A stretch of DNA of 64,000 bases from positions 1 to 64,000 of the forward strand of contig CAZELK010000003.1 of the NCBI GenBank assembly GCA_964513145.1, given 5' to 3'. Both the position numbers and the translations under genes were made by a program. Positions 20,158-58,958 of the stretch are shown one piece after another. This stretch comes from Candidatus Woesearchaeota archaeon (GTDB lineage Archaea > Nanobdellota > Nanobdellia > SCGC-AAA011-G17 > JACPIM01). The notes below the pieces were generated by a model. That model saw only the letters and a program-made list of their open reading frames with translations. It made no database searches and was not told the DNA's origin. Numbering within the stretch: the first letter of the stretch is position 1; each line of letters begins with the position of its first letter.

Positions 20158-21154
20158 ATGCAAGATTTATTGCCTTTTGAAAAAATTGAAAGAGAAGTTG
20201 TAATTAGAAAGGAAGCAGAAACAAACCCTGAATTTGGTTGCAAGCCTGAAAATAGATCGGCTGAACAATTAATTCATTATGGAATCGTGAATATAAACAA
20301 ACCTGAAGGGCCCACGAGCCATCAAATCTCGGATTATGTTCAGAAGATTTTGGGGATTAATAAATCCGGACACAGCGGAACCTTAGCGAAATAATTTTCG
20401 AGGATATCCCGGTGTGACTGGTTGCTTGCCTGTTGCTTTAGATAAAGCTACAAGGATAGTTCAAACTTTATTATCTGCCGGGAAAGAATATGTGGGAATA
20501 ATGCATTTACATAAAGAAATTCCAATTAAAGAAATTGAAACTAATTTTAAAGAATTTATAGGGAAAATAATGCAGTTGCCCCCAAGAAAAAGTGCTGTTA
20601 AAAGACAAATAAGACAAAGAGAAATTTACTATTTTAATATTTTAGAAATAAATGAACAAGACATTTTGTTTAGAGTCGGATGCCAGGCAGGAACTTACAT
20701 TAGAAAACTTACCTCTGATTTCGGGAAGAGATTAAATATTGGGGCTCATATGGCTGAATTGATAAGGACAAAAGCAGGACCCTTTAAAATTGAAGATTCT
20801 TTTACTTTACATGACTTAAAAGATGCTTTCTCCTTATATAAAAGTGAAAAAAATGAAACTGATATAAGGAAAATAATATTACCTATTGAAAAAGCAGTTG
20901 ATCATTTGAATAAAATCTGGGTTAATGACAGAACTGTTAATAATTTGTGCCATGGTTCTGATTTATTTTCCCCAGGGGTTGCAAAGTTACATAAAAACAT
21001 TGACAAAAATGAATTAGTAGCTATAATGACATTAAAGAATGAATTAATTTGTTTAGGTGAAACTGAAATTAATTTTGAAAACATAATGAAGAAAGAAAAA
21101 GGATTAATTGCTAAAACCAAAAAGGTGTTTATGGAAAGAAATACATATCAATAA
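20158..21154 (+). CDS. cbf5: H/ACA pseudouridine synthase Cbf5, interrupted by a 19-nt intron (exons 20158-20386 and 20406-21154; 325 aa spliced)
   Basis: NKPEGPTSHQ, GHSGTL|DPGVTGCLP after splicing, KEYV, QLPPRKSAVKR, GTYIRKL, PUA domain; 229+749=978 nt, in frame. Confidence 0.93.
20387..20405 (+). other. BHB mRNA intron in cbf5 (19 nt)
   Basis: GGAA-CCUU-AG|C-GAAA-UAAU-UUUC-GAGG-AU|A-UCCC; excision joins G+AU to make the catalytic Asp codon and removes an in-frame TAA. Confidence 0.9.
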
Positions 21155-22045: not shown

Positions 22046-22231
22046 ATGACTAGAAATAGTGGAATGATTAAAAGTAGTATTATTAGTAATAAAGTTACTA
22101 TGAAAATTTCTGAGGAGATATTCTTTGAATTAATGAAATTAAAGGGCGATTTCAAAGCAAAAACCTGGGATGAATTGTTTAAAAAAATAATAAAAGAGCA
22201 TGAAGAAAAAAATAAGCAAAAAATAAGATGA
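22046..22231 (+). CDS. Small putative DNA-binding (RHH/antitoxin-like) protein
   Basis: TMKISEEIFFELMKLK...TWDELFKKII pattern; overlaps the next start (ATGA). Confidence 0.5.
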   Translation: MTRNSGMIKSSIISNKVTMKISEEIFFELMKLKGDFKAKTWDELFKKIIKEHEEKNKQKIR

Positions 22232-25200
22232 ACAGAAAAAAATATTTCCGAAAATGGAAATTAAGCAAGTTTCAAAATAGATTTAAGAACAATAAAAAAC
22301 TTGCAAAAGAATTAGTTACAATTATTTTGCTTTCATTATTTTCCTTAACTTATTTTTATTTAGATCCTTCAATAACTGGTTTAGGTGCTTTGGATTCTGG
22401 AATTTTATTTGAACAAAGCAATTCTGTAATTTTAGAACAAAACATAACAAGCTTAAAAATAAGCGGATATGCTGGAGGCAATGGCGATGCAAAAGTATAT
22501 TTAGATAATTATTTAGTTATGAATATTTCTTTAGCTGAAAATCAGGAAAAGAGTTCTGAAACTTTGTTTACAATACAACCTACTTCAAAAATTACTTACT
22601 TTAATGATATTTGCATAGAAACCTGCAATAATATTATCAGTTCTTCATTATTAAAAATAGAAATAAACGGGACTTTAAAATTAGCAATAGACAAGTTTAC
22701 ATATACTTTAGCTGAAACTACTATTCAAAACACCATAGAATTTAATGAACAATTGACACAAGTTAAAGCAGAAATAAACAAACCAGTAGAATGGAAATTA
22801 AATACAAAAAACAAAACAATAGAATTGCCTTTGGAATCTGCTAATATAATAGTAGAAAAGGTAATTGAAAATAATTCGGAGGGCGGTATAGGAACCGTAG
22901 GTTCTTATAAAGAGGCTGCAAAATTAAATAATACTTTTTCAATTGCTTCTGATAAGAAAAAACTAGAAATAGATGAATTTAATGAAACTAAATTAGAAAT
23001 AACTTATTACACAAAAGCGCCATATACTATTGAAACAACCATTTTACCAAAAGCGTTGGCTGAAAATATTACAGACAATAATATTTTAACAAAAAATATT
23101 ACAATAAAATCAGATTCAGAATTACACTATGAAAATGTTTTATCTTATACTGATTTACCAGATATTCAAAAAGAACAAATTAAATTATTACATTATGCTT
23201 ATGATAACTTAACAAATAAAACTTATGAAGTAGATGTGACAAGTGACATAAATTATAATGTAACTTATTCAGATTTAAACAATAACGGATTAATAGACAG
23301 ATTATATTGGAATACTCCTCATTTATCAGAAGACAATTATTCAGTAGAAATATCATTAACAATATTAACAATACAAAGCTATCCAACAGTAGGCGGAAAC
23401 TGGACAGTCTTATTCAATACAACAGGAACAGCTAACTTAACAATAACTGCTTATAATGGAACTACTTGGTCATTAGAACCTCAGGTTCCAATACCTTCTA
23501 CTGATTTATTATTTTTAGAAATAAAATGTGGAGATAATTTACAAAATTATCAATGGACAGATAATTCAGTATTTATTCCAGATTATTCTTGCAACTACAC
23601 ATCATCAGAAATATCTAAAGTATTAACAACAGGCAAGCATACTTTGCAATTTACATTTGGAAACATAATAAAATACGGATACAATCTAGCTTCTGTTACA
23701 AATGGGACAGACCTAAATAATACAAATGCAGTTTATTTTAATACAACTTTTAATGTTTCTGGATTTATACAATTAAATGACTCTGCTGCTTTTGGTTTTG
23801 GTTCTTTTGGAAGAAATTTTAGTTTTAGGGGTAATTATACTTCAAAAATATTTGATGCAAATACAACTGCTAATTGGAGTAATTTTTCATGGGGAGAATT
23901 AGTTCCTTTTGGACAAGAATTGGTTTCCAATCCAGTATCAGGTTCAGAATTTATAGAAACTTCTTCAGCATTAAGGGGATTTAACATGACTGGGTTAGTT
24001 TTGTTAATGCATTTTAATAATTTATCAGGAGATGAAAGTTATTCTTCAACTAATGGTTCTGTAAAAGATTATTCTGGAAATAGTAATACTGGAAATGCTA
24101 CAAATAACAGTGTTTCTACTTATAGTTCTAATGAGGGAAAGTTTAATGGTGCATTTAATTTTTCTAGTCAACAATTTATTAGTATCCCACATACTAATTT
24201 ACTTGGTCTTAGAAGTGATAATAGAACTTTAACAGTTTCTACATGGATCAAATCAAGTGGTAATATATCTGGCTCATATATTTTAAGTAAACCGCGCTCT
24301 GCTTTTTCTGCTTATGCTCTTCTGGGTACTAGTATAGGTCTGATTCAATTTAGACTAGGACACCCAATTGATAGTACTAGAGGGGTTAATACGAAAAGTA
24401 TTGTTAATGATAGCCAATGGCATCATATAGTTGGTACTTATGACAATATTACTACTGGAGAATTTGATATCTATGTAGATGGAGTTAAAGAAACACAAGG
24501 AGTGGCTGACTTTAATATAAGTGATGATGGGGTTAATGCTTTGTTAATAGGCACGCATAATCTTCCTGCGCCTGATCTGGAATCATATTGGAATGGTTCA
24601 ATAGACGAAGTATCAATATGGAACAGGTCATTGTCAGCACAAGAAGTACAAGACTTATACAAAAGAGGACATTCAAATTTATCTTTACAAGTAAGAAGTT
24701 GTGATGATTCTTCCTGTTCTGGAGAATCATTTATGGGACCAGATAATACTTCTTCAAGTTATTTCACAAATGCTACTTTCAATACTTTAAATACATCAAT
24801 TACAGGAAATAACAGATATTTCCAGTATCAAGCATTATTTGAAAGAGATTTAAATAATTCAAATTTTACTCCAGAATTATATAATTTTACTGTGGGATAT
24901 GAACCTTCACCAACTATAAATCTAGTTTTCCCATTAAATAATTCATTAAATAATGCAACTGCTTTAAATTTATCTTATAATGTCTCTGCTAATAGTGGAA
25001 CTTTAGCTAACTGCACTTTATTTTTATCTGCTGTAAATAATACTGCTTTAATTAATAATCAAACTGATACAAGTATAACTGCTAATATTAATCAGACTTT
25101 TAATTTAACTTTTGTAAGGGGAGAATATAAATGGCTTGTCAGATGCACAAATACAAATAATCTAAGGGCAAATTCAACACAATTTAATTTTTCTTACGAA

Positions 25201-26100
25201 TTCGTTGCTGGTATTGATGAACCCGTTACAGAGCTGCCTAAAGAAGAAAAAGGAGTAAGCTCTTCACAGTCAGGATTTACAGAAAGTTCTTCAGTATCAT
25301 CTATATCTTTGCTTGCTTCTGGCAATTTATATAAATATAATCAATTAGCTCCTGGAATTACCACAATAAACATATTGGATACTGCTTTAAGTTTAGAATC
25401 TATTAACCTAGATGTTTCTGTTTTAATTAATAACCCATCTATAAAGATAGAGGAACTAAGCAATATTGATAATATAAATAAATTGCCTAATGTTTACAAA
25501 TATATTAATGTAGAAACTGATAATTTGTTAGATTCAGGCTTAAATAAGGTAGAATTTAACTTTAAACTTTCTAAATCTTCAGTAAATAACAAGGAGGTTT
25601 TCTTATATTTATATAGGGGAAATTGGGTTAAATTAAATACTGAAAAGGTAAAAGAAGAGGGTAATTTTGTTTACTATAGGGGTATTTCACCTCATTTAAG
25701 CTTGTTTGCAATCAGAGTATATAATCCTTCATTAGCTGAAATAATCAAAGAAAAACCAAAAGAAGCAATAAATTATTTTAAGGAAGACATGGTTAATTTT
25801 ACATTATATAATTACATAATTTTTGGATTGTTATCTTTATTATGCATATCTCTTTTTGTGTTAATTATTATTTTTTCAAAAAAATCAAAGATATTCAGAA
25901 AAATAATATATCATTTAATATTAATATTGACAATTTTTATAATAACTGGAGTATTAATAGCAAATAATTTAGAGAACTTAAAATTGGAATTCACTGAAAA
26001 AGAAATAATGTTATTTAGTTTTGCAACAATCGCAATATTGCTGGCTTTTGTTTATATCTCAATATTTTTCATAAAAAGATTAAGAAAAATTATTAAATGA
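22228..26100 (+). CDS. Large membrane-anchored surface protein with LamG and PGF-pre-PGF-like domains
   Basis: N-terminal TM, LVLLMHFN, WHHIVGTYD, IYVDG, GSIDEVSIWNRSLSAQEVQDLY (LamG), WVKLNTE...SPHLSLFAI, three C-terminal TM helices. Confidence 0.8.
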   Translation: MNRKKYFRKWKLSKFQNRFKNNKKLAKELVTIILLSLFSLTYFYLDPSITGLGALDSGILFEQSNSVILEQNITSLKISGYAGGNGDAKVYLDNYLVMNISLAENQEKSSETLFTIQPTSKITYFNDICIETCNNIISSSLLKIEINGTLKLAIDKFTYTLAETTIQNTIEFNEQLTQVKAEINKPVEWKLNTKNKTIELPLESANIIVEKVIENNSEGGIGTVGSYKEAAKLNNTFSIASDKKKLEIDEFNETKLEITYYTKAPYTIETTILPKALAENITDNNILTKNITIKSDSELHYENVLSYTDLPDIQKEQIKLLHYAYDNLTNKTYEVDVTSDINYNVTYSDLNNNGLIDRLYWNTPHLSEDNYSVEISLTILTIQSYPTVGGNWTVLFNTTGTANLTITAYNGTTWSLEPQVPIPSTDLLFLEIKCGDNLQNYQWTDNSVFIPDYSCNYTSSEISKVLTTGKHTLQFTFGNIIKYGYNLASVTNGTDLNNTNAVYFNTTFNVSGFIQLNDSAAFGFGSFGRNFSFRGNYTSKIFDANTTANWSNFSWGELVPFGQELVSNPVSGSEFIETSSALRGFNMTGLVLLMHFNNLSGDESYSSTNGSVKDYSGNSNTGNATNNSVSTYSSNEGKFNGAFNFSSQQFISIPHTNLLGLRSDNRTLTVSTWIKSSGNISGSYILSKPRSAFSAYALLGTSIGLIQFRLGHPIDSTRGVNTKSIVNDSQWHHIVGTYDNITTGEFDIYVDGVKETQGVADFNISDDGVNALLIGTHNLPAPDLESYWNGSIDEVSIWNRSLSAQEVQDLYKRGHSNLSLQVRSCDDSSCSGESFMGPDNTSSSYFTNATFNTLNTSITGNNRYFQYQALFERDLNNSNFTPELYNFTVGYEPSPTINLVFPLNNSLNNATALNLSYNVSANSGTLANCTLFLSAVNNTALINNQTDTSITANINQTFNLTFVRGEYKWLVRCTNTNNLRANSTQFNFSYEFVAGIDEPVTELPKEEKGVSSSQSGFTESSSVSSISLLASGNLYKYNQLAPGITTINILDTALSLESINLDVSVLINNPSIKIEELSNIDNINKLPNVYKYINVETDNLLDSGLNKVEFNFKLSKSSVNNKEVFLYLYRGNWVKLNTEKVKEEGNFVYYRGISPHLSLFAIRVYNPSLAEIIKEKPKEAINYFKEDMVNFTLYNYIIFGLLSLLCISLFVLIIIFSKKSKIFRKIIYHLILILTIFIITGVLIANNLENLKLEFTEKEIMLFSFATIAILLAFVYISIFFIKRLRKIIK

Positions 26101-26130: not shown

Positions 26131-28137
26131 TCATTTTTTAATTTCATAAACCTGGAGATAACATTCTCTTAAATTTGTAACATTAACAAAACTTCCAAAA
26201 ACCTTTTTTATGTTATCTAGAATTATTTTTGGCTCTAATTTTTTGTCATATTTTATTTTTCCATATTCTATTTTCTCATAACAATTATGTTCTTTCAAAT
26301 TTAAATTGAATTTACTACTTAATTTAAAATTTGTTCCTTCTTTTACAAAAAAACCCTTATTTACCAAAATATTTATTATGTCATATATCTCTGAAAACTG
26401 GACTCCTGATTTTGAAAATAATTCTGCAGCACTAAATTCTTTTATATCCAGGGCTGTTTTGAAAACTTTATTTTGTGTAGGGCTTAATTGCGGCAAATTC
26501 AGATCTAATTTTATTCCATTTCCTTTTTCTGCATCTTTTACTAATTCTCCAGTATTTAGATTTATTAGCAAATGTATTTCTTCCTTTACAAAACAAGTCA
26601 AATAAGCACAAGGGATCAGAATAATTTTTATATCTTTTATTTTTTCATCCATTAATTTAAGTTCTTGCACTGTGTTCTTTTGTTTAATTAAAGGCAATAT
26701 TTCACTATTACTTTCTTCTGGCGAGTTTTCTATATTTTTATTTTCTTCTATAGGGATATGCTTTACACTTTCCAATAAGCTTATGCTTTCTCCACCATGT
26801 TTTGTTTTTCTAGGTCTAATATTAACAAACAAAGGGAGATCTACGACACCAGAAACCAAGGCAGTGCCAACAGGTATATTTCTTATTTCTTTTTCTGTTT
26901 CTGATGTTAAGCCCTCAATAGAATTACTAATTGCCTTTAAATCATTTGGATTTGTAACTTTTAAAATTATTTGCGTTGTAACTTGTGATAATGCTGACTT
27001 GTCTACACGACTAGGGCGTTGGGATATCAAACAACATCCAAGACCGAATTTTCTTCCTTCACTAAAAATCTGCCTTAAAATTCTTGAACTTTTTGCTTCA
27101 TTGAAACTTCTTTCTGGCACATAATTATGACTTTCTTCTATTACCAAGAAAAATGGTGGTATGTTTCCTTTTTTCCTTTCATTGAACAAGTCTTTTGCCA
27201 GTTTGTAAACTACGACTTCCTGAACTTCCTGATCCACACCCTTTAAATTTAGAATAGTACATTTGCCTGGCTGAACTAATTCATTTAGTGATGTAAATTC
27301 CTGAGAAAAAATACCCAATTTTTTAATATATTCTATAATGCTTATTAATGTATATTTTACATTTGACTCCTGCGACTCGAGAAAATAAATTAAAGAATCA
27401 AAGTCAATAGCATCCAAATTTTTTAATGCTGCATATAAAATTCCTTTTTGCTGATTATTTAATTTGGCAGGCAATAATTGCAATAATTCGCCAGCACTTA
27501 GATTAGTTGAACTTAATTTTAATGGCTTGCATTCAGTATTTATTGAAATGTCTGTACTATATTCCTGAATCTGTCTTAAGAAACCTTTTGGCTTTAAATT
27601 AAATTTTTCCAATTTTTCCTTATTTGAACTTGGATATTTTAGAGCATTATATTCTCCATGAGGGTCTATTATTAAAACGGGGATATTTTTTTCCATAAGC
27701 TCTTCTATTATAACTCCAGAACAGAAACTTTTTCCACTGCCTGATTTTGCCAAGATACAAATGTGCTTATTTAATAATTTGTTTAAGTCCAAATAAACAT
27801 CTATATCATAATAGCTTAATTTTCCAATATATGCACTATTTGTACTTTTTTCCAGCCCCAAAGTTTCTTTAATAAAATCTTCTTCTGCTTTTAGGACTTC
27901 TATATTAGGTTCAAATGGCGTTTTTAAAGTTTTTAATATATTATCACTATCCCTGAAACCAATAATTATGCAGATCGCAATTGTCTTTTCTATATCTTTT
28001 TCTATTTCTGTTATTTGTGACAAAACATATTTTCCTTCATGAAGAACCTGAACATACTGGAATTTTTCAGCTTTATTTTCTACCTTAAATGTAAATTCTT
28101 TTGTACTTACTTTGCCTATTATCCTTCCTAAAATCAT
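26131..28137 (-). CDS. HerA/DUF87-family ATPase with HAS barrel and C-terminal extension
   Basis: HICILAKSGSGKS, IDPHGEY, EESHNY, EGRKFGLG, SQRPSRVDK. Confidence 0.85.
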   Translation of the reverse strand: MILGRIIGKVSTKEFTFKVENKAEKFQYVQVLHEGKYVLSQITEIEKDIEKTIAICIIIGFRDSDNILKTLKTPFEPNIEVLKAEEDFIKETLGLEKSTNSAYIGKLSYYDIDVYLDLNKLLNKHICILAKSGSGKSFCSGVIIEELMEKNIPVLIIDPHGEYNALKYPSSNKEKLEKFNLKPKGFLRQIQEYSTDISINTECKPLKLSSTNLSAGELLQLLPAKLNNQQKGILYAALKNLDAIDFDSLIYFLESQESNVKYTLISIIEYIKKLGIFSQEFTSLNELVQPGKCTILNLKGVDQEVQEVVVYKLAKDLFNERKKGNIPPFFLVIEESHNYVPERSFNEAKSSRILRQIFSEGRKFGLGCCLISQRPSRVDKSALSQVTTQIILKVTNPNDLKAISNSIEGLTSETEKEIRNIPVGTALVSGVVDLPLFVNIRPRKTKHGGESISLLESVKHIPIEENKNIENSPEESNSEILPLIKQKNTVQELKLMDEKIKDIKIILIPCAYLTCFVKEEIHLLINLNTGELVKDAEKGNGIKLDLNLPQLSPTQNKVFKTALDIKEFSAAELFSKSGVQFSEIYDIINILVNKGFFVKEGTNFKLSSKFNLNLKEHNCYEKIEYGKIKYDKKLEPKIILDNIKKVFGSFVNVTNLRECYLQVYEIKK

Positions 28138-28177: not shown

Positions 28178-29059
28178 TTAATGTGCCAATAAATAATTTA
28201 ATTTTTCCAGGCTTTCTTTTTCTATCTGCCTAACTCTTTCCCTGCTCAAGTTTACCTTGTTTCCAATTTCTTCCAGAGTCATAAGCTTATAACCATTTAA
28301 ACCAAATCGCATTTTTAAAATCTTAACGTCTCTTTCATTTAATTTTTTTAATTTGCTTTCCAAGTTTAACAACTCTGAATTTTTTGCTGCCAATTCCCCT
28401 GGACTTGTTGCTTTTTTATCTTCAAGATCTAATTTGCCGTCTTCTGAACCAAAGCTATTTATTTGCACTATATGTTTTTCACTTTCTAAAGCATGTTTAA
28501 TTATTTGTATCCTATCCTTATTGTAACCAAGTTCTTCCAAACAAGTTTCAATATCCAACACATAACCTTTGCTTTGCTTAATCTTATCAATTCCTATTTT
28601 GGCTTGGACGACATCTGATATTATATAATTTGGAATACGAATTGGTTTTCCTGTGTCTATTAAGGCTCTTGCTATTGATTGGTAAACCCACCAAGCAGCA
28701 TATGTTGAGAATTTGCAACCTTCTTCTTTTCTAAAATGATCAACTGCTTTTATTAATCCGACATTACCTTCCCCAATTAAATCCAGAAGTGACATACCCT
28801 TATTATGGAAGTTTCCAGCTATGCTAACGACAAGTCTTAAGTTGCTTTTAATTATTTTCTCTTTTGCCTTTATGTTTCCTTTTTGATATTTTTCAAACAG
28901 GTCTTTTTCTTCTTCTTTAGACAGCAATTTATATTGACAGATTTCTTTAAAATATATTTTAAGCAATTCTTCGTTTTGAGAATTTTCTGGATAGTTATAT
29001 TTTGAACTTCCTGAAATATAATTTCTTTTTCCAAAACCAAAAGGCTTTATTTTTTTCAT
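28178..29059 (-). CDS. Bacterial-type sigma-70 family factor (regions 1.2, 2, 3, 4)
   Basis: LKIYFKEI, NLRLVVSIA, DLIGEGNVGLIKAVDHF, KFSTYAAWW, IRIP, RFGL, TLEEIG...SRERVRQIEKESLEKL. Confidence 0.9.
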   Translation of the reverse strand: MKKIKPFGFGKRNYISGSSKYNYPENSQNEELLKIYFKEICQYKLLSKEEEKDLFEKYQKGNIKAKEKIIKSNLRLVVSIAGNFHNKGMSLLDLIGEGNVGLIKAVDHFRKEEGCKFSTYAAWWVYQSIARALIDTGKPIRIPNYIISDVVQAKIGIDKIKQSKGYVLDIETCLEELGYNKDRIQIIKHALESEKHIVQINSFGSEDGKLDLEDKKATSPGELAAKNSELLNLESKLKKLNERDVKILKMRFGLNGYKLMTLEEIGNKVNLSRERVRQIEKESLEKLNYLLAH

Positions 29060-29116
29060 ATTTTTTTAAAAATCTATAGGTTTATTAATGCTATTTATCT
29101 GTTTTAGTGGTTAAAA

Positions 29117-30118
29117 ATGCAGCAAGATAAAGAGCCAGAAAAGATTGTTTTTATAAACAGAGAATCTGGAATTCCTTTAATTGGAACTGTTTTTATAGGG
29201 ATTTTGGACAGGGGAAGTTCCTTATTGCAGGTCAGGGCTACTACTTTATGCAACATGTCGTGTGCTTTTTGTTCGACAGATGCGGGCATTTTTTCCAAGT
29301 TTCATAAGACTCATTTTATTGCAGAACCTAATTACTTGGTTGAAGAACTGAAGAAAGTTTCTGAATATAAGGGTTATAACTTACACTATAATATTGATTC
29401 TGTTGGTGAGCCGACTTCTTATCCATATTTAATTGAATTAATAAAGGGAATTAAAGAAATTCCACAAGTTGTTAAAATTTCAATGCAGACTAATGGTACT
29501 TTACTGACTAGAAAATTAATTGATGATCTTGAAAATGCAGGGTTAAACAGGCTTAATGTTTCTGTTCATTCTTTGGATTTATTAAAAGCAAAACTATTAT
29601 TTGGAAGTGAGAATTATAATATTGAAAAAGTAAAAGAAATGCTAAATTATATTAAAAATACTAAAATCGATTTATGGATTACCCCAGTCTGGATACCTAA
29701 AATTAATGATGATGATATTATTGAGCTGATAAAATTTGCAAAAGAAAATAAGTTTAATATAGCAATACAAAAATATGAAACTTACAAGTTCAGCAGGAAA
29801 ATAAAAAAAGGAAAAAAAATCACTTACTGGAAATTTTACAAACAATTAGAAAATTGGGAGAAAGAGTTTAATATCAAGCTTAAGTTTACAGAAGATGATC
29901 CGACAATTTTACGAAGAAAAGCTTTGCCTATAGTTTTTGATATTAATGAAAAGTTTCAAGTGGTTGTAGTTTCAAAAGGCTGGTTTGAAAATCAAGTTAT
30001 TGCAAAAGCAAGAGACAGATGCATAACTATTTTAGACTGCAATGCTGATATTGGCAATAAAATAAATATCAAAATCATAGAAAATAAAAATAATATCTAT
30101 ATTGCACAGTTAAAGTAG
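29117..30118 (+). CDS. Radical SAM protein with C-terminal TRAM-like domain
   Basis: CNMSCAFCSTD CxxxCxxC, GEPT, MQTNGTLL, C-terminal beta domain. Confidence 0.85.
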   Translation: MQQDKEPEKIVFINRESGIPLIGTVFIGILDRGSSLLQVRATTLCNMSCAFCSTDAGIFSKFHKTHFIAEPNYLVEELKKVSEYKGYNLHYNIDSVGEPTSYPYLIELIKGIKEIPQVVKISMQTNGTLLTRKLIDDLENAGLNRLNVSVHSLDLLKAKLLFGSENYNIEKVKEMLNYIKNTKIDLWITPVWIPKINDDDIIELIKFAKENKFNIAIQKYETYKFSRKIKKGKKITYWKFYKQLENWEKEFNIKLKFTEDDPTILRRKALPIVFDINEKFQVVVVSKGWFENQVIAKARDRCITILDCNADIGNKINIKIIENKNNIYIAQLK

Positions 30119-32826: not shown

Positions 32827-34293
32827 ATGAAACCTGAAGATTTGCTAGTAAAAGAGAGAATAGAAAAATTAGAGAAATTAAAAAAATTAGGTGCAGATCC
32901 CTATCCTTCTAAATTTGACAAAAAGAATGACATTATTGATATTGTAAACAAATACTCAAAATTAAAAAATGAAGAACATTCCAAAGATGCGATTAAAACT
33001 GCTGGCAAAGTAATGTCTATCAGAGAAATGGGTAAGGCATCTTTTTTTGATATTAAAGATGAAAAATCAAAAATTCAATGCTTTATTAAAGAAGACGAAG
33101 TCAAGAAAAAATATGAAATTTACAAACTTCTTGATATTGGCGATATTGTCGGGATTGAAGGCAGTATTTTTAGAACCAAGAGGGGAGAATTATCAATATT
33201 AGTAAAAAATATTGTTATTTTATCAAAGTCTTTAAAACCCCTGCCTGACAAATGGCATGGATTAAAAGATGTTGAAGAGAAATTCAGGAAAAGATATTTA
33301 GATCTTCTTATGGATCCAGAATTAAAAGAATTATTTATAAAAAAATCCAAATTCTGGCAGACAATAAGAAACTTTTTATTAAATAAAGGATTTTTAGAAG
33401 TTGAAACCCCTGTTTTAGAAACCTCGACTGGGGGTGCGGCTGCCATGCCGTTTAAGACACATCATAATTCTTTGGATATTGATGTTTACTTAAGAATTTC
33501 AATGGGCGAATTATGGCAAAAAAAATTATTAGTTGGTGGTTTTGAAAAAACTTTTGAGATAGGAAGACAATTCAGAAATGAAGGTGTAGATACAGAACAT
33601 TTACAAGATTATACGCAAATGGAATTTTACTGGGCTTATGCTAATTACAATGATGGAATGGAATTAGTTCAAGAGATGTACAGATTAGTTGCCAAAGAAA
33701 TTTTAGGAACTCTGAAATTTAAGACACATGGCTTTGATATTGATTTAGGAAAAAAATGGGAATTATATGACTATGAAACTTTAATTAAAGATAAAACAGG
33801 AATAAAAATATTTGAAGCTTCTAAAAAAGAAATTCAAAAAAAATTGGATCAATTAAAAATGGAATATGAAAAAAATGCTGCTAAATGGAGGTTGGTTGAT
33901 GTTTTATGGAAATACTGCAGAAAATCATTATCTGGTCCGGGGTTTTTAATAAACCAGCCAGTTGATGTAAGCCCATTAGCGAAAAGAAGCGACAAAGATA
34001 ATAGAAAAGTTGAGCAATTTCAAGTTATACTTGCTGGAACTGAATTAGGAAATGGATATAGTGAATTAAATGATCCGCTTGATCAGGAAAAAAGGTTTAT
34101 AGAACAAAGAAAATTGAAAGAAGCTGGAGATAAGGAAGCTCATGAACATGATGAAAGTTTTGTCGAGGCTTTAAAATATGGGATGCCACCTGCTTGCGGA
34201 TTTGGAGTTTCTGAAAGATTATTTGCTTTTCTAGTTGACAAACCAATCAGGGAATGCGTTATTTTTCCTTTAATGAAACCTGAGAAGAACTAA
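32827..34293 (+). CDS. lysS: Class II lysyl-tRNA synthetase
   Basis: OB fold (GKASF, FRTKRGELS), RYLDL, VETPVL, FEIGRQFRNEG, EFYWAY, ELGNGYSELNDP, YGMPPACGFG. Confidence 0.95.
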   Translation: MKPEDLLVKERIEKLEKLKKLGADPYPSKFDKKNDIIDIVNKYSKLKNEEHSKDAIKTAGKVMSIREMGKASFFDIKDEKSKIQCFIKEDEVKKKYEIYKLLDIGDIVGIEGSIFRTKRGELSILVKNIVILSKSLKPLPDKWHGLKDVEEKFRKRYLDLLMDPELKELFIKKSKFWQTIRNFLLNKGFLEVETPVLETSTGGAAAMPFKTHHNSLDIDVYLRISMGELWQKKLLVGGFEKTFEIGRQFRNEGVDTEHLQDYTQMEFYWAYANYNDGMELVQEMYRLVAKEILGTLKFKTHGFDIDLGKKWELYDYETLIKDKTGIKIFEASKKEIQKKLDQLKMEYEKNAAKWRLVDVLWKYCRKSLSGPGFLINQPVDVSPLAKRSDKDNRKVEQFQVILAGTELGNGYSELNDPLDQEKRFIEQRKLKEAGDKEAHEHDESFVEALKYGMPPACGFGVSERLFAFLVDKPIRECVIFPLMKPEKN

Positions 34294-40999: not shown

Positions 41000-41752
41000 A
41001 TGATTAAAATCGGGATTATAGGCGGGTCTGGATTAGATGACCCTGATATTTTAGAAGATAAACAGGAAAAAGAAATAATTACCCAGTTTGGCAAGCCTAG
41101 TTCTAACTTAACTATTGGCAGAATAAAAGGAGTTGATGTAATTATTTTGGCAAGACATGGAAAAAAACATACTATTACTCCAACTAAAGTAAATTATAGG
41201 GCCAATATCCAGGCTTTTAAACAAGAGGGCTGTACACATATTTTAGCAACTACTGCAGTCGGGTCTTTAAAAGAAGAAATAAAAAGGGGGGATTTAATAA
41301 TTATAGACCAGTTTATAGATTTTACAAGACATAGAGACATAACTTTCCATGATTCTTTTGAAAATGGACCAGTGCACACATCAATGGCAGAACCTTTTGA
41401 TAAAAATTTAAGAAACAAACTTATTGAAACTTCCAGGGAATTAGATTTTAGAGTTCATGAAAAAGGAACAGTTATTACAATTGAAGGCCCAAGATTTAGC
41501 ACTAAAGCAGAATCGAAAATGTTTAGATTATGGGGTGCAGATATAATCAATATGTCAATTGCTCCTGAAGCTACTTTAGCAAATGAAGCTGGAATTCCCT
41601 ATGCTGCTATTGCCATGAGCACTGATTATGACTGCTTATTTGATGATCTTCCACCAGTGACTTGGGAAGAAGTTTTAAAAGTATTTCATGAAAATGCGAA
41701 AAAAGTTACAACTTTGCTTATTAAAACAATTCCAAAGATTACTTCTTTATGA
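41000..41752 (+). CDS. mtnP: 5'-methylthioadenosine phosphorylase
   Basis: [37 protein letters not shown]. Confidence 0.93.
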
Positions 41753-43075
41753 TTTTTTCTTTTTAGTTTTATTTTCTTCCGAGATTCTTATTTTTTTCAT
41801 AACTTGCTGAACTGGATTTTTTATATTATTGCACCAGAAATCTGGCTTGCATACTAGCATTCCTTTATAGTAACTTGGATTGTCACAATTTGGGGGGAGA
41901 ATATCCTGTTTTTGTCTTTTATGCCAACTTATTTGAGATATTATGTAGCCGTCTCTTAATTGTTCATAATTTAATTTGTTCCATTCTAATAATCTTGCCT
42001 GTATCTGATCCAATGACCAGCCCATTTTTTTCAAAAAATTAATTAAAATAAAAATAGTTCTTTTTCTTCCATCATGCTGCATTCCTTTAAGCAATAACTG
42101 CATACAAGGCGGAAATAAGTCTTCTTTTATAGCTATTTTTGGGAGCTCATATTCTTTTTTTTCTTTGGAAATTATTTTTTCGTTTTGATTTTTTATTTCA
42201 TTTCTTACCAAGTTTCTTGAATGCCAATCAAAGGCCTGAATCAATAATTCTGAAGCGTCATTACCTTTACCTTTATATTCTAAAAATGAGCCAGTTACTT
42301 CAGTCTTATCTGGTGTTGCATTTTCCCTTTTAAAATTTAATATATTGCTTAATTCTATTGGTATACTTACCAGACCGCTTTTTTCGTTTAAACTGTATAT
42401 TGACCTGAACATATGACGGCTTGAGATTAAAACACTGTCAATGTCGATGACTGTAAACGGATTAAAAGAATTATTTTCCAAAAAATTATTGCTTTCTTTA
42501 TTTAATATTTTGCTTAAATCTTCAATATTATAATTATCTAAAATTTTTGCTTTTAAGTGGTCTTTAATGAAATTTTTTATATAGGAATTGACAACTCTTA
42601 TTCCTTCTGGAAATAATAACTTAACTTCCTTATTGTTTATGTGGGAAGGAAAACTTTCAAATGGTATTCCTATATGAAGGCCGCTGTTCCCACTAAATTT
42701 TGCAGAAATATTTTTTACATTATGAAATTTTAAACATTCAACAACTAAATTTGCGCATAATTTTGCGACTTCAAAAATCTTTGTATCCAAATCTATTACT
42801 ATATCAAAACCAATTCTTAATTCGTCCAGCTCTTTTTGATTCATGCCTGTTTTTAATTTTAAAGGATCTCTGAAACGCTCCAAAGAAACATGGAAAGAAG
42901 TTGCGCCTTGTTTTGCAAGTTCCAATATGTCATTTTCATATTCTAAAATATCCGGTCTTTTACCAAAACCTTTTTCACCAAATTTAACTGCGAATTCCCT
43001 GTTTTTTGCTAGCTTTACTATCTCTTTTTGAATACTTTTTTTACTATAGAACTTTAATATATTTGTATCTATCAT
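41747..43075 (-). CDS. Fused PriS-PriL DNA primase (DPANN type)
   Basis: [25 protein letters not shown] (PriS) then FPPCM, DGRKR, PPNC..Y..C.PD.WC (PriL Fe-S) in one ORF. Confidence 0.9.
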
Positions 43076-52893: not shown

Positions 52894-53532
52894 CTAGCTT
52901 GCTTCTGCGAATTTTATTCTCAAATTTTTTAATTCCTTTTTAATTTTATTATGAATGGTTGCTGCTGAGATGTCTAATTCTTTAGCAACTTTCTTCATAC
53001 TTTTTTCTTCTTCAAAATACTTTTTAAATATATCTTTAGTTTGCGGTTCCTTGATGCTGTAATTTATACATTTTAATAATTCTTCTTTTTCTAGAATATC
53101 TACTTGCTTTTCTCTTTCTGATTCTACTATCTCTTCCAATTGAGACCAATTATTATTTGTAACATATCTATGTCTTTTTTCTTTTCTTAGCGAGTCAAGT
53201 ATTTTACTTTTTGCACATGAATAAACGTATGTTGAAAATCGGCTTTGATAATTATAATTTTCAATATTATTTATGGCTTTTAATAATCCCAGATTTCCTA
53301 TGCTTATCAAGTCTATAAAATTAATTTTACAACCTAGAAATTTATTCGCAACAGCACTAACAACCCAAAGATTATGATTTAGCAGTTTTTCTTTTATTTT
53401 TTCATCTTTTTTAGCTTTTTCTACCAATTCTTTTTCTTCTTCGTCATTTAGCCTGTGATATTTACTTATTTCATTAAAATAAATCTCAATTACATCAACA
53501 CCATTTTTTCTTTTATATTCCAATCTTTTCAT
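52894..53532 (-). CDS. Second sigma-70-like protein (regions 1.2, 2, 4; no region 3)
   Basis: IYFNEI, HNLWVVSAVA, DLISIGNLGLLKAI, RFSTY, HTH SMKKVAKELDISAATI. Confidence 0.8.
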   Translation of the reverse strand: MKRLEYKRKNGVDVIEIYFNEISKYHRLNDEEEKELVEKAKKDEKIKEKLLNHNLWVVSAVANKFLGCKINFIDLISIGNLGLLKAINNIENYNYQSRFSTYVYSCAKSKILDSLRKEKRHRYVTNNNWSQLEEIVESEREKQVDILEKEELLKCINYSIKEPQTKDIFKKYFEEEKSMKKVAKELDISAATIHNKIKKELKNLRIKFAEAS

Positions 53533-53620: not shown

Positions 53621-53643
53621 CATAGGTAATTGGCTTGTATTTT
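53621..53643. other. 23S pre-rRNA terminal/processing stem, 3' arm
   Basis: 22/23 inverted repeat of 57047-57069. Confidence 0.75.
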
Positions 53644-53932
53644 ATTTTTGGGCTATTAGTAACTGCAAGCTGAATACGTCGCCGAAGCTTCGTACTTACA
53701 CTTCAGTCCTATCAAACTCATGTTCTTTGAGCGCCCTATATCTCTTTTCAAGTATAGCTTCCTCCTTAGATGCTTTCAGGAGTTATCTATTAGAGCGTAG
53801 CTGCTCGGCCTGCCTTGTCAGACAACCGATACACCAGAGGCTCCGAATCATTGTTCCTCTCGTACTAAATGATCCTTACCTTCAGATATTAAGCACTTCC
53901 AGTAGATATAATCCAAACTGTCTCACAACGTT

Positions 53933-54016
53933 ATGTTAAACGGGAGGAATTGAACCTCGCTTCGGCAAATACATAGAGATGTTTTAATTTGCTTATGTAT
54001 TTGCTTACAACCGTTG
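53933..54016 (-). other. 23S BHB intron, about E. coli 2588/2589 (84 nt)
   Basis: GUUA-AG|C-AACGG...CCGUU-UAAC-AU|A; spliced GGGUUAAGAACGUUGUGAGAC. Confidence 0.88.
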
Positions 54017-54070
54017 CTTAACCCAGCTCACGAACCATTTTAATGGGTGAACACCCCCACCCTTGGCTGC

Positions 54071-54256
54071 CTACAGTTCGAAGGACAATTCGTGAAAATA
54101 GTTTTCCTTAAAGTCAAAATATTAGTGATTAATTTAATATAGTTCTAAATAGTTCTCAAATTAACATACTAATTTTTAGACTTCTAAGTAATAGATATCG
54201 GAAATAAAAGACATTTTGACTTGAAAAACTATTGTTCGTATGATTGTCCTTCGACA
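54071..54256 (-). other. 23S BHB intron, about E. coli 2534/2535 (186 nt)
   Basis: GCAG-AA|U-G UCGAAGGACAAU...AUUGUCCUUCGA A-CUGU-AG|G-CAGCC; spliced GGCUGUGCAGAAGCAGCC; long hairpin, no recognisable protein ORF. Confidence 0.85.
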
Positions 54257-54269
54257 TTCTGCACAGCCA

Positions 54270-54301
54270 CTATATTGATACAAGAATTAACTTTATATCA
54301 T
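54270..54301 (-). other. 23S BHB intron, about E. coli 2521/2522 (32 nt)
   Basis: AUAU-CC|A-UGAUA...UAUCA-AUAU-AG|U; spliced CCAUAUCCUGGCUG. Confidence 0.88.
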
Positions 54302-54373
54302 GGATATGGTGAGCCGACGTCGAAGTAGCAAACAGCGCCATCGATATGAGCTCTTAGGCGCTACGACTCAGTT

Positions 54374-54410
54374 CTAGGGATCTAAGAGAAAATTTTTGAT
54401 CTCTAAGATT
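54374..54410 (-). other. 23S BHB intron, about E. coli 2449/2450 (37 nt)
   Basis: GGGG-AU|A-AUCU...AGAU-CCCU-AG|A; spliced GGGGAUAACUGAG. Confidence 0.85.
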
Positions 54411-54914
54411 ATCCCCGAGATAGCTTTTCTGTCATACCTAGCCCCTATTAATAAGGACATAGGGGTTCGCTAGACCAGACTTTCGTCTCTGGATTTTTTA
54501 ATAGTCAAAATCCAGTCAGGCCAACTTTTGCTCTTGCACTCTTCAGAAGATTTCCAAACTTCTTGAGTTGACCTTAGGGCCCTGTTGATATCTTTTCAAC
54601 AGGGTGCCGCCCCAGCCAAACTGTCCAACTGCTGCTGTCCCAACTTTCGTTGGTAAGTAACATAAATTCTACAGAGTGGTATTTCAATTTTGTCTATCCT
54701 TAACCTAGCAGCTAAGGCATAGCGACTACCACCTATACTACACAGTAGAACATATATCACAACAACAGTCTACAGTAAAGTTCTACGGGGTCTTTTCTTC
54801 CCGCTGGAAGTCTCTGGCCTGCACACCAGAAGGGTATTTTCAGTGGATACTAACTAGGGACAGTGCGGATCTCGTTACGCCATTCATGCGCGTCGTCATT
54901 CAAACGACAAGGTA

Positions 54915-55053
54915 CAACGATATCATTAATCTCATTTCTCAGATTCAACTTTTCAGTTCAAAATGTGAAAGATATTTTTTGTTTAACAAACCCAAGGCAA
55001 TTCTCTTAGATGAATGGCTTTTTCATCAAAATCTATAGCGAGATTAATGATAA
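54915..55053 (-). other. 23S BHB intron, about E. coli 1938/1939 (139 nt)
   Basis: GCGA-AA|U-UAUCAUUAAUCUC...GAGAUUAAUGAUA-UCGU-UG|U-ACCU; spliced GUAGCGAAAUACCUUGUCG. Confidence 0.9.
54939..55029 (-). ncRNA. Candidate intron-encoded box C/D guide RNA
   Basis: UGAUGA (55023-55028), 13-nt spacer ending in GCCAUUCAU (antisense to 23S exon 54879-54887), CUAA (55006-55009), CUGA at 54953 and 54939. Confidence 0.45.
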
Positions 55054-55079
55054 TTTCGCTACCTTAAGAGAATTATAGT

Positions 55080-55111
55080 CTAGAATTGTTAAAGATTTTT
55101 CTTACAACAAA
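55080..55111 (-). other. 23S BHB intron, about E. coli 1912/1913 in the H69 loop (32 nt)
   Basis: GGAA-UA|U-UUGUU...AACAA-UUCU-AG|A; spliced GGGAAUAACUAUAAUUCUC. Confidence 0.88.
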
Positions 55112-55903
55112 TATTCCCGCCGTTTACAAGTCCTTAGCCTCCTTGAAAAGAGGTTTTAGATACTTGCACTGGGCAGACGTCACGTCTCATACACATCATT
55201 GCTGACTTGCGAGACGTTACGTTTTTGTTAAACAGTCGGACCCGCCTAGTCACTGCGCCCTGTAATTGCAGTTAGAAACTACAACCGCAGGGATTCCTTC
55301 TACCAAAGGTACGGAACTAAATTGCCGATTTCCCTTAGCTAGTTTACACCATCATACCTTAGGCTTCTCACCTAGAGTACCTGTGTTGGTTCTGGGTATA
55401 ATTATTCAAGATCCTTTTTAATTTCATTTTCACGGACTCCAGGCATCAACCAAATGGACCATAAGGTCCACTATTCTTAAAATTAATCAAGTTCTCACCA
55501 TTACGGTACTTCCTTGATTTGTTTTAATTAACATCCAAGACAATAGATGTTGGCTTAGCCCAAAATGTCTGAAACTAAACTTGTGTTACCACGCGTACTT
55601 GAATAGTAAAGGAATATTAACCTTTTTCCCATTCCCTAAGACCTATTAGGCCTTTGGTTAGGATTAACTTACTCTTAGCTGATTTGCATTGCTAAGAAAC
55701 CCTTACTCTTACGGTATCAGGGAGTCTTACCCTGTATTGCTCCTACTACTACCAGGATTCTCATTTTTATTAGGTCCACTATTTCTTTCGAAAAAGCTTC
55801 TACCCTAACAAAGCGCCTACCTACCACATAAGTTCTTTACTTAGTCTATAGTATCGGTAACTGATTTAGCCCCGTCCATCTTCAGGGCATATAACCTTGA
55901 CAG

Positions 55904-55946
<43 letters not shown>

Positions 55947-57132
55947 TACCTCCCTGCTGTCTCTGGTTATACACGCCTTTTACCCTTTAACACTTAATCA
56001 GTATTTAGGGACCTTAACTATAGTCTGGGTTGTTCCCCTCTCGCGATATAAGCTTAACCCACATCGCTTTTTCCTAAGGTCTCAGATGACAAAATATTCG
56101 GAGTTGGACGAAGAGGGGAGGAATTTCTTCCCCTTACCCCTAAATCCGTAGCTCTACAATTTTATCTATCTCACTTAAGACTAGACTGAGGCCTATTTCG
56201 GTAGGAACCAGCTATAACCAGTCTCGATTGGCTTTTCACCCCTAATCTAAGGTTATACAAACAGATTTACACTAGAACTGCTTCAGGCCTCCACAAGGTT
56301 TTACCCCTGCTTCACCTTACCCTAGAATAGATCGACTGGATTCGGGTAGCATCCAAGTGACTATAGGCACTTTCATACCTAACCCCTCCTTGAAAAGTGT
56401 GGGTTTTTGGTTTCCCTTCAAGTTCAAACTGAAAAGTTTTTACTTTCGCCACTTAAATGCACTCCCTGGCTCGTTATTCGAAACGCACGATACAACTCCG
56501 AAGAGCAGTATCATTCTGTATTCATTAGGTTTCAGGATCTTTTCACTCCATGTTAAAGGTTCTTTTCAACTTTCCTTCGCAGTACTCTTTGCTATCGGTC
56601 TCAAGTTATATTTAGAGTTGGAAGTTAATAGCTCCCACATTCACACCCCATATCCGAGGAGTGCTACTCTGGATACCTCGCAAGTCTATTAATCTGCTCT
56701 ACAGGACTATCACCTTCTATGATGTCTTTTTCCAAAGAACTTTGAGCAGAATTAATTAAGATCAAAAGCAAGGTCCAAACACTACATTTCTATTTTATTT
56801 CTAAAATAGATTCAGTTTGCTCTATGTCGTTTTTTCTCGCTGATACTCACGACATCTATTTGATTTCTTTTCCTCCAGGTACTAAGACGTTTCAATTCCC
56901 CAGGTTCCCAATCTTTTCAGATTTAATGAGAAGTCTCATTCAGAAATCTCCAGTTCACAAGTTGCATGCACTTCGCTGGAGCTTATCACAGCTTGCCATG
57001 TCCTTCTTCGGAACTTGAGCCAAGTCATCCACCTAATGAAGTAGGAAAAATACAGGCCAATTACCTATGCACGGAACTATATAAAAATAATTCCCTTGAC
57101 CCAAAAAAATTTCTTTTTCTGAGCTGCATTTT

Positions 57133-57161
57133 AAACTTTTTAAAAAAAGTTTAATCAAAAA
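57133..57161 (+). repeat. Repeat family B copy in the rRNA spacer
   Basis: aaactttttaaaaaaagtttaatcaaaaa, abutting a family A copy. Confidence 0.7.
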
Positions 57162-57188
57162 TAAGAACCGAGGTTCTTTTCAACTCCT
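57161..57188 (+). repeat. Dispersed palindromic repeat family A, copy 4
   Basis: ATAAGAACC-GA-GGTTCTTTT + caactcct. Confidence 0.7.
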
Positions 57189-57231
57189 AAAAGTTGATTA
57201 TATTTTTGAATATGAAATGGACCCGTCGGGA

Positions 57232-57263
57232 TGTTCATTACTTTTAATTTCTCAAAAGTTTAT
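57232..57263 (-). other. tRNA-Ala T-loop intron, 59/60 (32 nt)
   Basis: UCGGG-UUCA-AA|A-...-UGAA-CA|U-CCCGA; intron-side helix relaxed. Confidence 0.87.
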
Positions 57264-57303
57264 TTTGAACCCGAGGCCCCTGCCTTGCAAGGGCAGTGCT
57301 CTA

Positions 57304-57344
57304 TTGCCCCAAACTTTGTAAAAAGTTTTGATCAAATTATTTGA
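57304..57344 (-). other. tRNA-Ala D-loop intron, 19/20 (41 nt), containing a family B repeat
   Basis: GCUCA-GUCU-GG|U-CAAA...UUUG-GGGC-AA|U-AGAGC; + strand 57311-57336 reads aaactttgtaaaaagttttgatcaaa. Confidence 0.87.
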
Positions 57345-57377
57345 CCAGACTGAGCTACGGGCCCATTTATTTAATTG

Positions 57378-57410
57378 AAATATGTAGGTTATTATGCATC
57401 TAGTAAAAAA
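57378..57410. other. 16S pre-rRNA processing stem, 3' arm (relaxed BHB)
   Basis: AAATATGTAGGT and ATCTAGTAAAAA are inverted at 58991-59022 and flank a bulged centre. Confidence 0.7.
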
Positions 57411-57413
57411 ATA

Positions 57414-58958
<1,545 letters not shown>

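Follow-up and report, generated by a model that had tools for sequence, protein, structure and literature searches.

An intact, long-resident sigma-70 family gene in a Woesearchaeota-type DPANN chromosome

The evidence presented here leaves us highly confident that a DPANN archaeon of the Woesearchaeota type (Nanoarchaeota in GTDB) has a genuine and intact member of the sigma-70 family resident in its chromosome. The gene, here called sigma-1, is an intact ORF of 293 aa with an ATG start, located on the minus strand at 28178-29059 of the window (the whole 64-kb stretch of DNA analysed, positions 1 to 64,000 of a 115-kb contig, with sigma-1 mid-contig), and was characterized by its ORF, Pfam matches, AlphaFold2 modelling and Foldseek. 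In textbooks, sigma factors mark the bacterial way of starting transcription and TBP/TFB the archaeal/eukaryotic one. The initial annotation had called this gene a near-complete group-1/2-like sigma factor embedded among archaeal genes, a description borne out by the intact ORF, the Pfam matches and the archaeal markers on the same contig. Judged by its domains, sigma-1 is a member of the sigma-70 family, with both a sigma2 and a predicted -35-reading sigma4 present.

Pfam calls for three regions, all on the minus strand, exceeded their curated cut-offs: region 1.2 (aa 33-61, 28877-28963; PF00140, 25.4 bits against a cut-off of 22), Sigma70_r2 (PF04542, aa 70-133; 54.9 bits against 24) within a sigma2 domain comprising regions 2.1-2.4 by alignment to E. 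coli RpoD (aa 64-143, 28631-28870), and Sigma70_r4 (PF04545, aa 237-287; 55.8 bits against 24.1) within a sigma4 domain that includes the -35 recognition helix (aa 219-291, 28187-28405). Region 3 had no Pfam match (PF04539) at E<=0.01, and its identity is 6-24% to any homologue and 6-21% to syntenic orthologues. AlphaFold2, run with 84 homologues, gave a model (mean pLDDT 86.6) in which aa 143-202 form a three-helix sigma3 with a pLDDT of ~95, and we annotate this sequence-divergent domain at aa 144-202 (28454-28630, minus strand). The model places sigma2 at aa 26-135 and sigma4 at aa 219-291, with aa 1-21 disordered, and between sigma3 and sigma4 lies a region 3.2-like acidic linker (aa 203-218, 28406-28453, minus strand; pLDDT and alignment) that is disordered in the model, with a pLDDT <50 at aa 202-210. 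The earlier statement that all these regions are preserved therefore stands for regions 1.2, 2 and 4, and for region 3 at the level of the AlphaFold2 fold only. The motifs KFSTYAAWWVYQ and SRERVRQIE occur in the sequence, and the STYAAWW and RERVRQIE strings that had been singled out are there to the letter (FSTYAAWW, SRERVRQIE).

Foldseek matched the model to SigA/RpoS chains of holoenzyme structures with a probability of 1.0, and phmmer agreed on SigA/RpoS. Sigma2 is 52-68% identical to bacterial sigma2. Because the nearest NCBIfam models are RpoS and RpoD, yet sigma-1 falls below every equivalog cut-off by a wide margin (RpoS TIGR02394, 211.7 bits against 378.7; RpoD NF006666, 203 against 572, and TIGR02393, 193 against 354), we classify it as a group-1/2-like sigma factor outside the named subfamilies. 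With the bacterial group 1/2 factors (RpoS and the short RpoD/SigA of Planctomycetota) it shares the domain order 1.2, 2, 3, 4 (region 3 as predicted by the model), the -10 and -35 residues, the sigma2-sigma4 spacing and, as top structural matches, SigA/RpoS. Unlike them, it lacks region 1.1 (by alignment and AlphaFold2 model), scores below the equivalog cut-offs, has changed extended -10 residues and sits in a host without a bacterial RNA polymerase (RNAP). The non-conserved insert of primary sigmas is also not present in sigma-1.

At the level of single residues (E. coli numbering), sigma-1 keeps L402, D403, E407, N409, F427, Y430, W433, W434, Q437 and R441, as well as R562 and the -35 helix residues R584, E585, R586, R588 and Q589. 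It carries the changes Q406G, Y425C, T440A, H455Y and E458S, the extended -10 residues H455 and E458 being Y and S here. Across 35 DPANN copies, in which mean column identity is 28%, Y430 is conserved in 100%, W433 in 89%, W434 and Q437 in 97% each, and R584/E585/R588/Q589 in 94-97%; the residues that melt and read the -10 element and those that read the -35 element are conserved in DPANN about as in bacteria. Relaxed in DPANN relative to bacteria are L402 (17% vs 84%), E407 (74% vs 99%), R441 (43% vs 98%) and R562 (43% vs 98%). The spacing from sigma2 to sigma4 measures 100 residues in sigma-1; E. coli and nearly all bacterial copies have 101, and the DPANN median is 103 (sd 6.5). Constraint thus falls chiefly on those positions of sigma2 and sigma4 that serve bacteria to read and melt the -10 element and to read the -35 element, and sigma-1 is among the most canonical of the DPANN copies. 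The genome encodes a second sigma-70 family gene (212 aa, 52894-53532, minus strand; PF04542 match), shorter and more degenerate, which adjoins the 23S rRNA gene just downstream of it, resembles ECF sigmas (NCBIfam sigma70-ECF superfamily model, 91.5 bits) and is without W433/W434 and the -35 recognition residues. Though the two genes share genome, contig and family and are both long-resident and fast-evolving, sigma-1 is by far the more canonical.

That a bacterial piece was fused to an archaeal contig during assembly or binning is scarcely credible. The host genome (0.98 Mb) is 98.8% complete and 0.27% contaminated, and the contig on which sigma-1 lies mid-contig carries archaeal 23S and 16S rRNA genes (53636-58958, minus strand; Rfam LSU_rRNA_archaea, 2246 bits, at 53636-57056 and SSU_rRNA_archaea, 1354 bits, at 57415-58958), together with Orc1/Cdc6, PolD DP1 and DP2, archaeal primase and Nre. 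A chimera, which the initial annotation had raised as a danger to its reading, is excluded because the order of HerA-like ATPase, sigma and radical-SAM genes, and with it both junctions, recurs in two further genomes of the genus (G002 and G003; G001 is a third congener and G000 the present genome). Sigma r2 matches are also found in single-contig genomes of the phylum, such as G209, and mis-binning of such genes was excluded by Castelle et al. 2021, who found no anti-sigma factors either (PMC8204110). Base composition had been said to match that of the archaeal genes around it, and this was confirmed: GC is 0.305 and GC3 0.242 (genome means 0.295+/-0.036 and 0.210+/-0.044), and the codon-usage distance of sigma-1 lies at the 58th percentile among the ORFs of the genome. 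Since GC, GC3 and codon usage are genome-typical whereas the nearest bacterial relatives belong to Planctomycetota, sigma-1 is a long-term resident, bacterial in origin, acquired long ago and fully ameliorated.

These closest bacterial relatives are short (~275 aa) proteins named 'RpoD/SigA', with 45-49% identity to sigma-1; a single-protein scan of GTDB genome contigs returned no match. Full-length homologues with 27-40% identity, sometimes in tandem, occur in 58 of the 201 genomes of the order, and of the 401 high-quality genomes that represent the phylum, 166 have Sigma70_r2 (163/398 when the unpublished G400, G471 and G526 are set aside), spread over 144 of 281 genera. In a quick PMSF tree, sigma-1 grouped with the same-genus copies (SH-aLRT 94), this group fell weakly beside the short Planctomycetota-type sigmas, and most other homologues of the order formed another clade. 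An AU test (LG+G4, 63 rows, with six very-long-branch DPANN rows left out and bacterial rows thinned) did not reject one DPANN clade (delta lnL 4.6, p 0.44 on this reduced set). The DPANN-specific clade for which a phylogeny had been suggested as a check was thus neither demonstrated nor rejected, and because the test leaves one clade standing, a single old acquisition of the DPANN sigma would be compatible with the data.

Sigma-70 homologues in Woesearchaeota were already published in 2021, and the phenomenon itself is not new: Castelle et al. described their family fam00359 as 'particularly prevalent in Woesearchaeota' (PMC8204110). Sigma-1 belongs among these DPANN/Woesearchaeota homologues, lying as it does on a contig with archaeal markers and recurring in the lineage, and it is like fam00359 in lineage type, protein family, archaeal-marker contigs and the lack of an anti-sigma factor nearby, with nothing fundamentally different; its tie to the fam00359 cluster as such is one of likeness. 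The orthologue in G002 is named 'RpoD/SigA [Nanoarchaeota archaeon]' at NCBI, and an order-level homologue is assigned to '[Candidatus Woesearchaeota archaeon]'. Among the papers searched we found no functional study of DPANN sigma-70 homologues. An intact sigma family in about 40% of the genomes of an archaeal phylum, in cells whose sole polymerase is archaeal, departs from the textbook division, and this exception is already published. New here is the locus-level detail for one genus, namely a fixed position, 0-2 copies, fast evolution and a map of residue conservation.

At this locus, sigma-1 lies 40 bp upstream of a gene for a HerA-like (DUF87) ATPase whose C-terminus carries a TrmB HTH (26131-28137, minus strand; Pfam), 77-82% identical in G001, G002 and G003, in which the combination of HerA/DUF87 ATPase, HAS-barrel and TrmB-type HTH is an unusual fusion. 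On its other side, a divergently transcribed radical-SAM gene (29117-30118, plus strand; Pfam; 65-80% identical in congeners) is separated from it by a 57-bp intergenic region (29060-29116). Reading of this region revealed A/T-rich TATA-like boxes (ATAAATAG and TTAATAAA) some 41 to 22 nt ahead of the sigma-1 ATG, which may represent the putative sigma-1 promoter. No strong sigma-70-type promoter was seen, a consensus scan being at background with 27 found and 22.9+/-4.5 in shuffles. In G002 and G003 the HerA-like ATPase, sigma and radical-SAM genes follow one another and continue to the lysyl-tRNA synthetase (LysRS) gene as they do here, where that gene encodes a class II (bacterial-type) enzyme (32827-34293, plus strand). 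G001 belongs to the same genus and is 96% complete; there, about 200 bp separate the radical-SAM gene from the HerA-like one, and this interval contains no sigma. The HerA-like gene is therefore a conserved neighbour in the genus and not an obligate partner of the sigma, since the sigma-less G001 has kept it. Traces of an old shared location exist further afield: a sigma adjoins the LysRS orthologue in two genomes from a different family within the order, and in G008, from another genus of the same family, a very divergent sigma lies beside the orthologue of the window gene at 20414-21154. Across the order, the sigma genes had no recurrent neighbour, only housekeeping genes, and no anti-sigma factor, integrase or viral gene was seen near them. 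In G002 and G003, the radical-SAM and sigma genes are separated by an ORF of 183 aa that matches no Pfam family (L004:896-1444 and L005:802-1350, both plus strand) and that abuts the sigma start in G003. We rejected it as an anti-sigma-like partner; its homologue here (43% identical, G000:C1:39557-40168) is on another contig, away from any sigma.

The number of sigma copies at the HerA/radical-SAM locus is 0 in G001, 1 in the present genome, 1 in G002 and 2 in G003, and from these 0, 1, 1 and 2 copies within one genus it follows that sigma-1 is accessory. Syntenic sigma orthologues are 37-39% identical (58-59% in sigma2 and 39-51% in sigma4), whereas identity reaches 76-82% in the genes on either side and 86-87% over the first 400 residues of Rpo1; synonymous sites are saturated, given that the closest orthologues are only about 38-40% identical. 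Sigma-1 is thus accessory and much faster-evolving than its neighbours, yet kept intact. Orthologues of only 37-39% identity, absence from G001 and the lack of a known partner might suggest a relic of a past transfer, non-functional and drifting, but this is very unlikely. The ORF is intact here, and in the order 68 of 69 matches are without an internal stop, from which we conclude that the copies are not decaying, contrary to the sporadic decay against which the initial annotation had cautioned. Moreover, functional residues are 89-100% conserved vs a 28% background, the domain folds are confident (AlphaFold2), and reduced genomes of ~1 Mb would tend to purge useless DNA.

Variable presence and tandem copies could also be read as the mark of a virus, a mobile element or a defence module, with sigma-1 as a prophage-borne rpoS-like gene or as an MzaA-like sigma paired with HerA. 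rpoS-like genes, likewise of the sigma-70 family, are reported from DPANN viruses and a prophage (Nat Commun 2025, PMC12647753), PADLOC matched the locus to MzaA and HerA, and in keeping with MzaA of the MZA anti-phage system an ATPase gene adjoins sigma-1. We nonetheless consider such an origin very unlikely. The best IMG/VR relatives are <=39% identical, more distant than the bacterial ones, and a recent viral origin is not supported by them. Unlike the viral rpoS-like genes, sigma-1 stands among conserved housekeeping genes (LysRS, a THUMP methyltransferase and similar), with no viral genes adjacent and no integrase, capsid or other defence genes seen. The match to MzaA concerns its C-terminal, generic sigma part only, where the score equals that of RpoD, and at 203 bits it lies far below the full-length cut-off of 800; the MzaA N-terminal region is absent here, and no neighbour of sigma-1 matched another Mza gene. 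PADLOC and PHROG matches of the locus are generic, and a defence module based on the matches to MzaA, HerA and pVip was rejected as generic domain similarity, the HerA-like gene persisting in G001 without a sigma.

What sigma-1 could act upon is framed by the transcription machinery of its host. The premise that this is a host of the TBP/TFB type was confirmed: the genome has one Rpb1 locus, one Rpb2 locus, one TFB, one TBP and one TFE-alpha, and no second, bacterial-type RNAP. Within the RNAP operon (G000:C8:24640-34728, partly covered by L048), the Rpo1N/A' ORF measures 1363 aa and the first piece of Rpo2 991 aa; in most relatives A' has ~860-885 aa, G008 and G040 share the long form, and the length suggests a large insertion or an intein beyond residue 400. 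Sigma-70 consensus promoters were not enriched upstream of 974 genes (with <=2 mismatches, 99 were counted, compared with 82-100 in shuffles and 86 in antisense), a scan that a handful of sites could escape. TFE-alpha is present in 193 of the 201 genomes of the order, independent of sigma, and because it is near-universal there as well as present here, we rejected the idea that sigma replaces TFE.

A sigma-like cofactor of the archaeal RNAP is a possibility that we regard as unlikely. Under this model sigma2 would dock on the Rpo1 clamp coiled-coil and engage the non-template strand, and open-complex formation would be assisted or redirected at a subset of promoters, alongside or in competition with TFE and Spt4/5. 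In its favour, the melting residues, the sigma2.2 residues and the sigma2-sigma4 spacing were kept over order-level divergence, the archaeal clamp helices align gap-free to E. coli beta' 260-309, and the long residence of the family has given it time to adapt. The Rpo1 residues at beta' R275, E295 and A302, where substitution abolishes E. coli holoenzyme formation (PMC8321222), are however I244, L264 and H271, so that the three docking residues are not conserved, and these positions of the clamp helices are invariant in the order with or without sigma in the genome. The flap-tip helix bound by sigma4 is commonly missing in archaea (PMC8321222), the gene is dispensable within the genus, TFE-alpha has not been replaced and sigma-70 promoters are not enriched. 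A complex prediction for sigma aa 28-148 with Rpo1 aa 1-400 scored 0.00, which speaks neither for nor against binding.

Phage sigma factors reprogram bacterial RNAP, and by analogy the protein might enter an attached bacterium and reprogram its polymerase. Sigma-1 keeps nearly all core-binding and promoter-recognition residues (L402, D403, E407, N409, R441, R562 and the -35 helix), it is 45-49% identical to short Planctomycetota sigmas, and fast evolution with copy-number variation resembles that of host-interaction genes. Even so, we judge this effector role quite unlikely: the N-terminus does not look like a signal peptide in sequence, no SLT or M23 murein hydrolases were found in the genome (a weak negative), the neighbours are housekeeping genes, and the known hosts of DPANN are archaea. 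The relaxation of L402, R441 and R562 in DPANN would also be unexpected if a bacterial core were the target. Taken more broadly, the idea of a bacterial sigma adapted to a non-bacterial partner, either the archaeal RNAP clamp, on which it would aid melting at some promoters in a hybrid sigma/TBP-TFB initiation, or, by delivery, a partner cell whose polymerase it would reprogram, is doubtful, if somewhat less so than either of these specific forms. Of the three functions named by the initial annotation, a DNA-binding regulator, a factor acting on the RNAP of a bacterial partner and an interaction with the archaeal RNAP, the evidence leans mildly toward a role within the archaeon and against the bacterial partner.

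Archaea routinely run bacterial-type HTH regulators on a eukaryote-like basal machinery, and we tentatively favour the reading that sigma-1 may be a co-opted accessory, sequence-specific DNA-binding regulator in the archaeal cell. On this view the helix-turn-helix of sigma4 would recognise a hexamer resembling the -35 element, while sigma2 would recognise an A/T-rich -10-like element. Region 1.1 blocks free sigma-70 from binding DNA, and since this autoinhibitory region is missing here, sigma-1 could bind DNA without a core enzyme. It would then adjust the transcription of a small number of genes by the archaeal RNAP, which depends on TBP, TFB and TFE. A general initiation factor it would probably not be, because (i) the host has a single archaeal RNAP with TFB, TBP and TFE-alpha and no enrichment of sigma-70 promoters, and (ii) Rpo1 has I244/L264/H271 in place of R275/E295/A302, invariant regardless of sigma. 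Some features sit less easily with a regulator: a plain HTH regulator would need neither the melting aromatics W433, W434 and Y430, nor the sigma2.2 residues D403, E407 and N409 that face the beta' coiled-coil, nor a near-bacterial sigma2-sigma4 spacing. The retention of melting aromatics, sigma2.2 residues and spacing is therefore a hint of a polymerase-coupled role. Given that sigma-1 is highly canonical and that the genus offers a set of 0, 1, 1 and 2 copies, the gene is a good candidate for binding and transcription experiments.

Elsewhere in the window, ARAGORN found no tRNA in the whole 64 kb, the 16S-23S spacer included, and the 23S rRNA match covers 3421 nt against a model of 2987 nt, which suggests insertions. 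A 442-aa protein with Pfam domains of both the small and the large subunit of DNA primase (41747-43075, minus strand) is apparently a fused PriS-PriL. On the far side of the HerA-like gene, a protein of 1290 aa that is rich in Asn, Ser and Thr and combines a LamG_3 domain with transmembrane segments at its C-terminus (22228-26100, plus strand) is missing at the corresponding place in G001 and G002, and we therefore interpret it as a strain-specific insertion of a surface protein.
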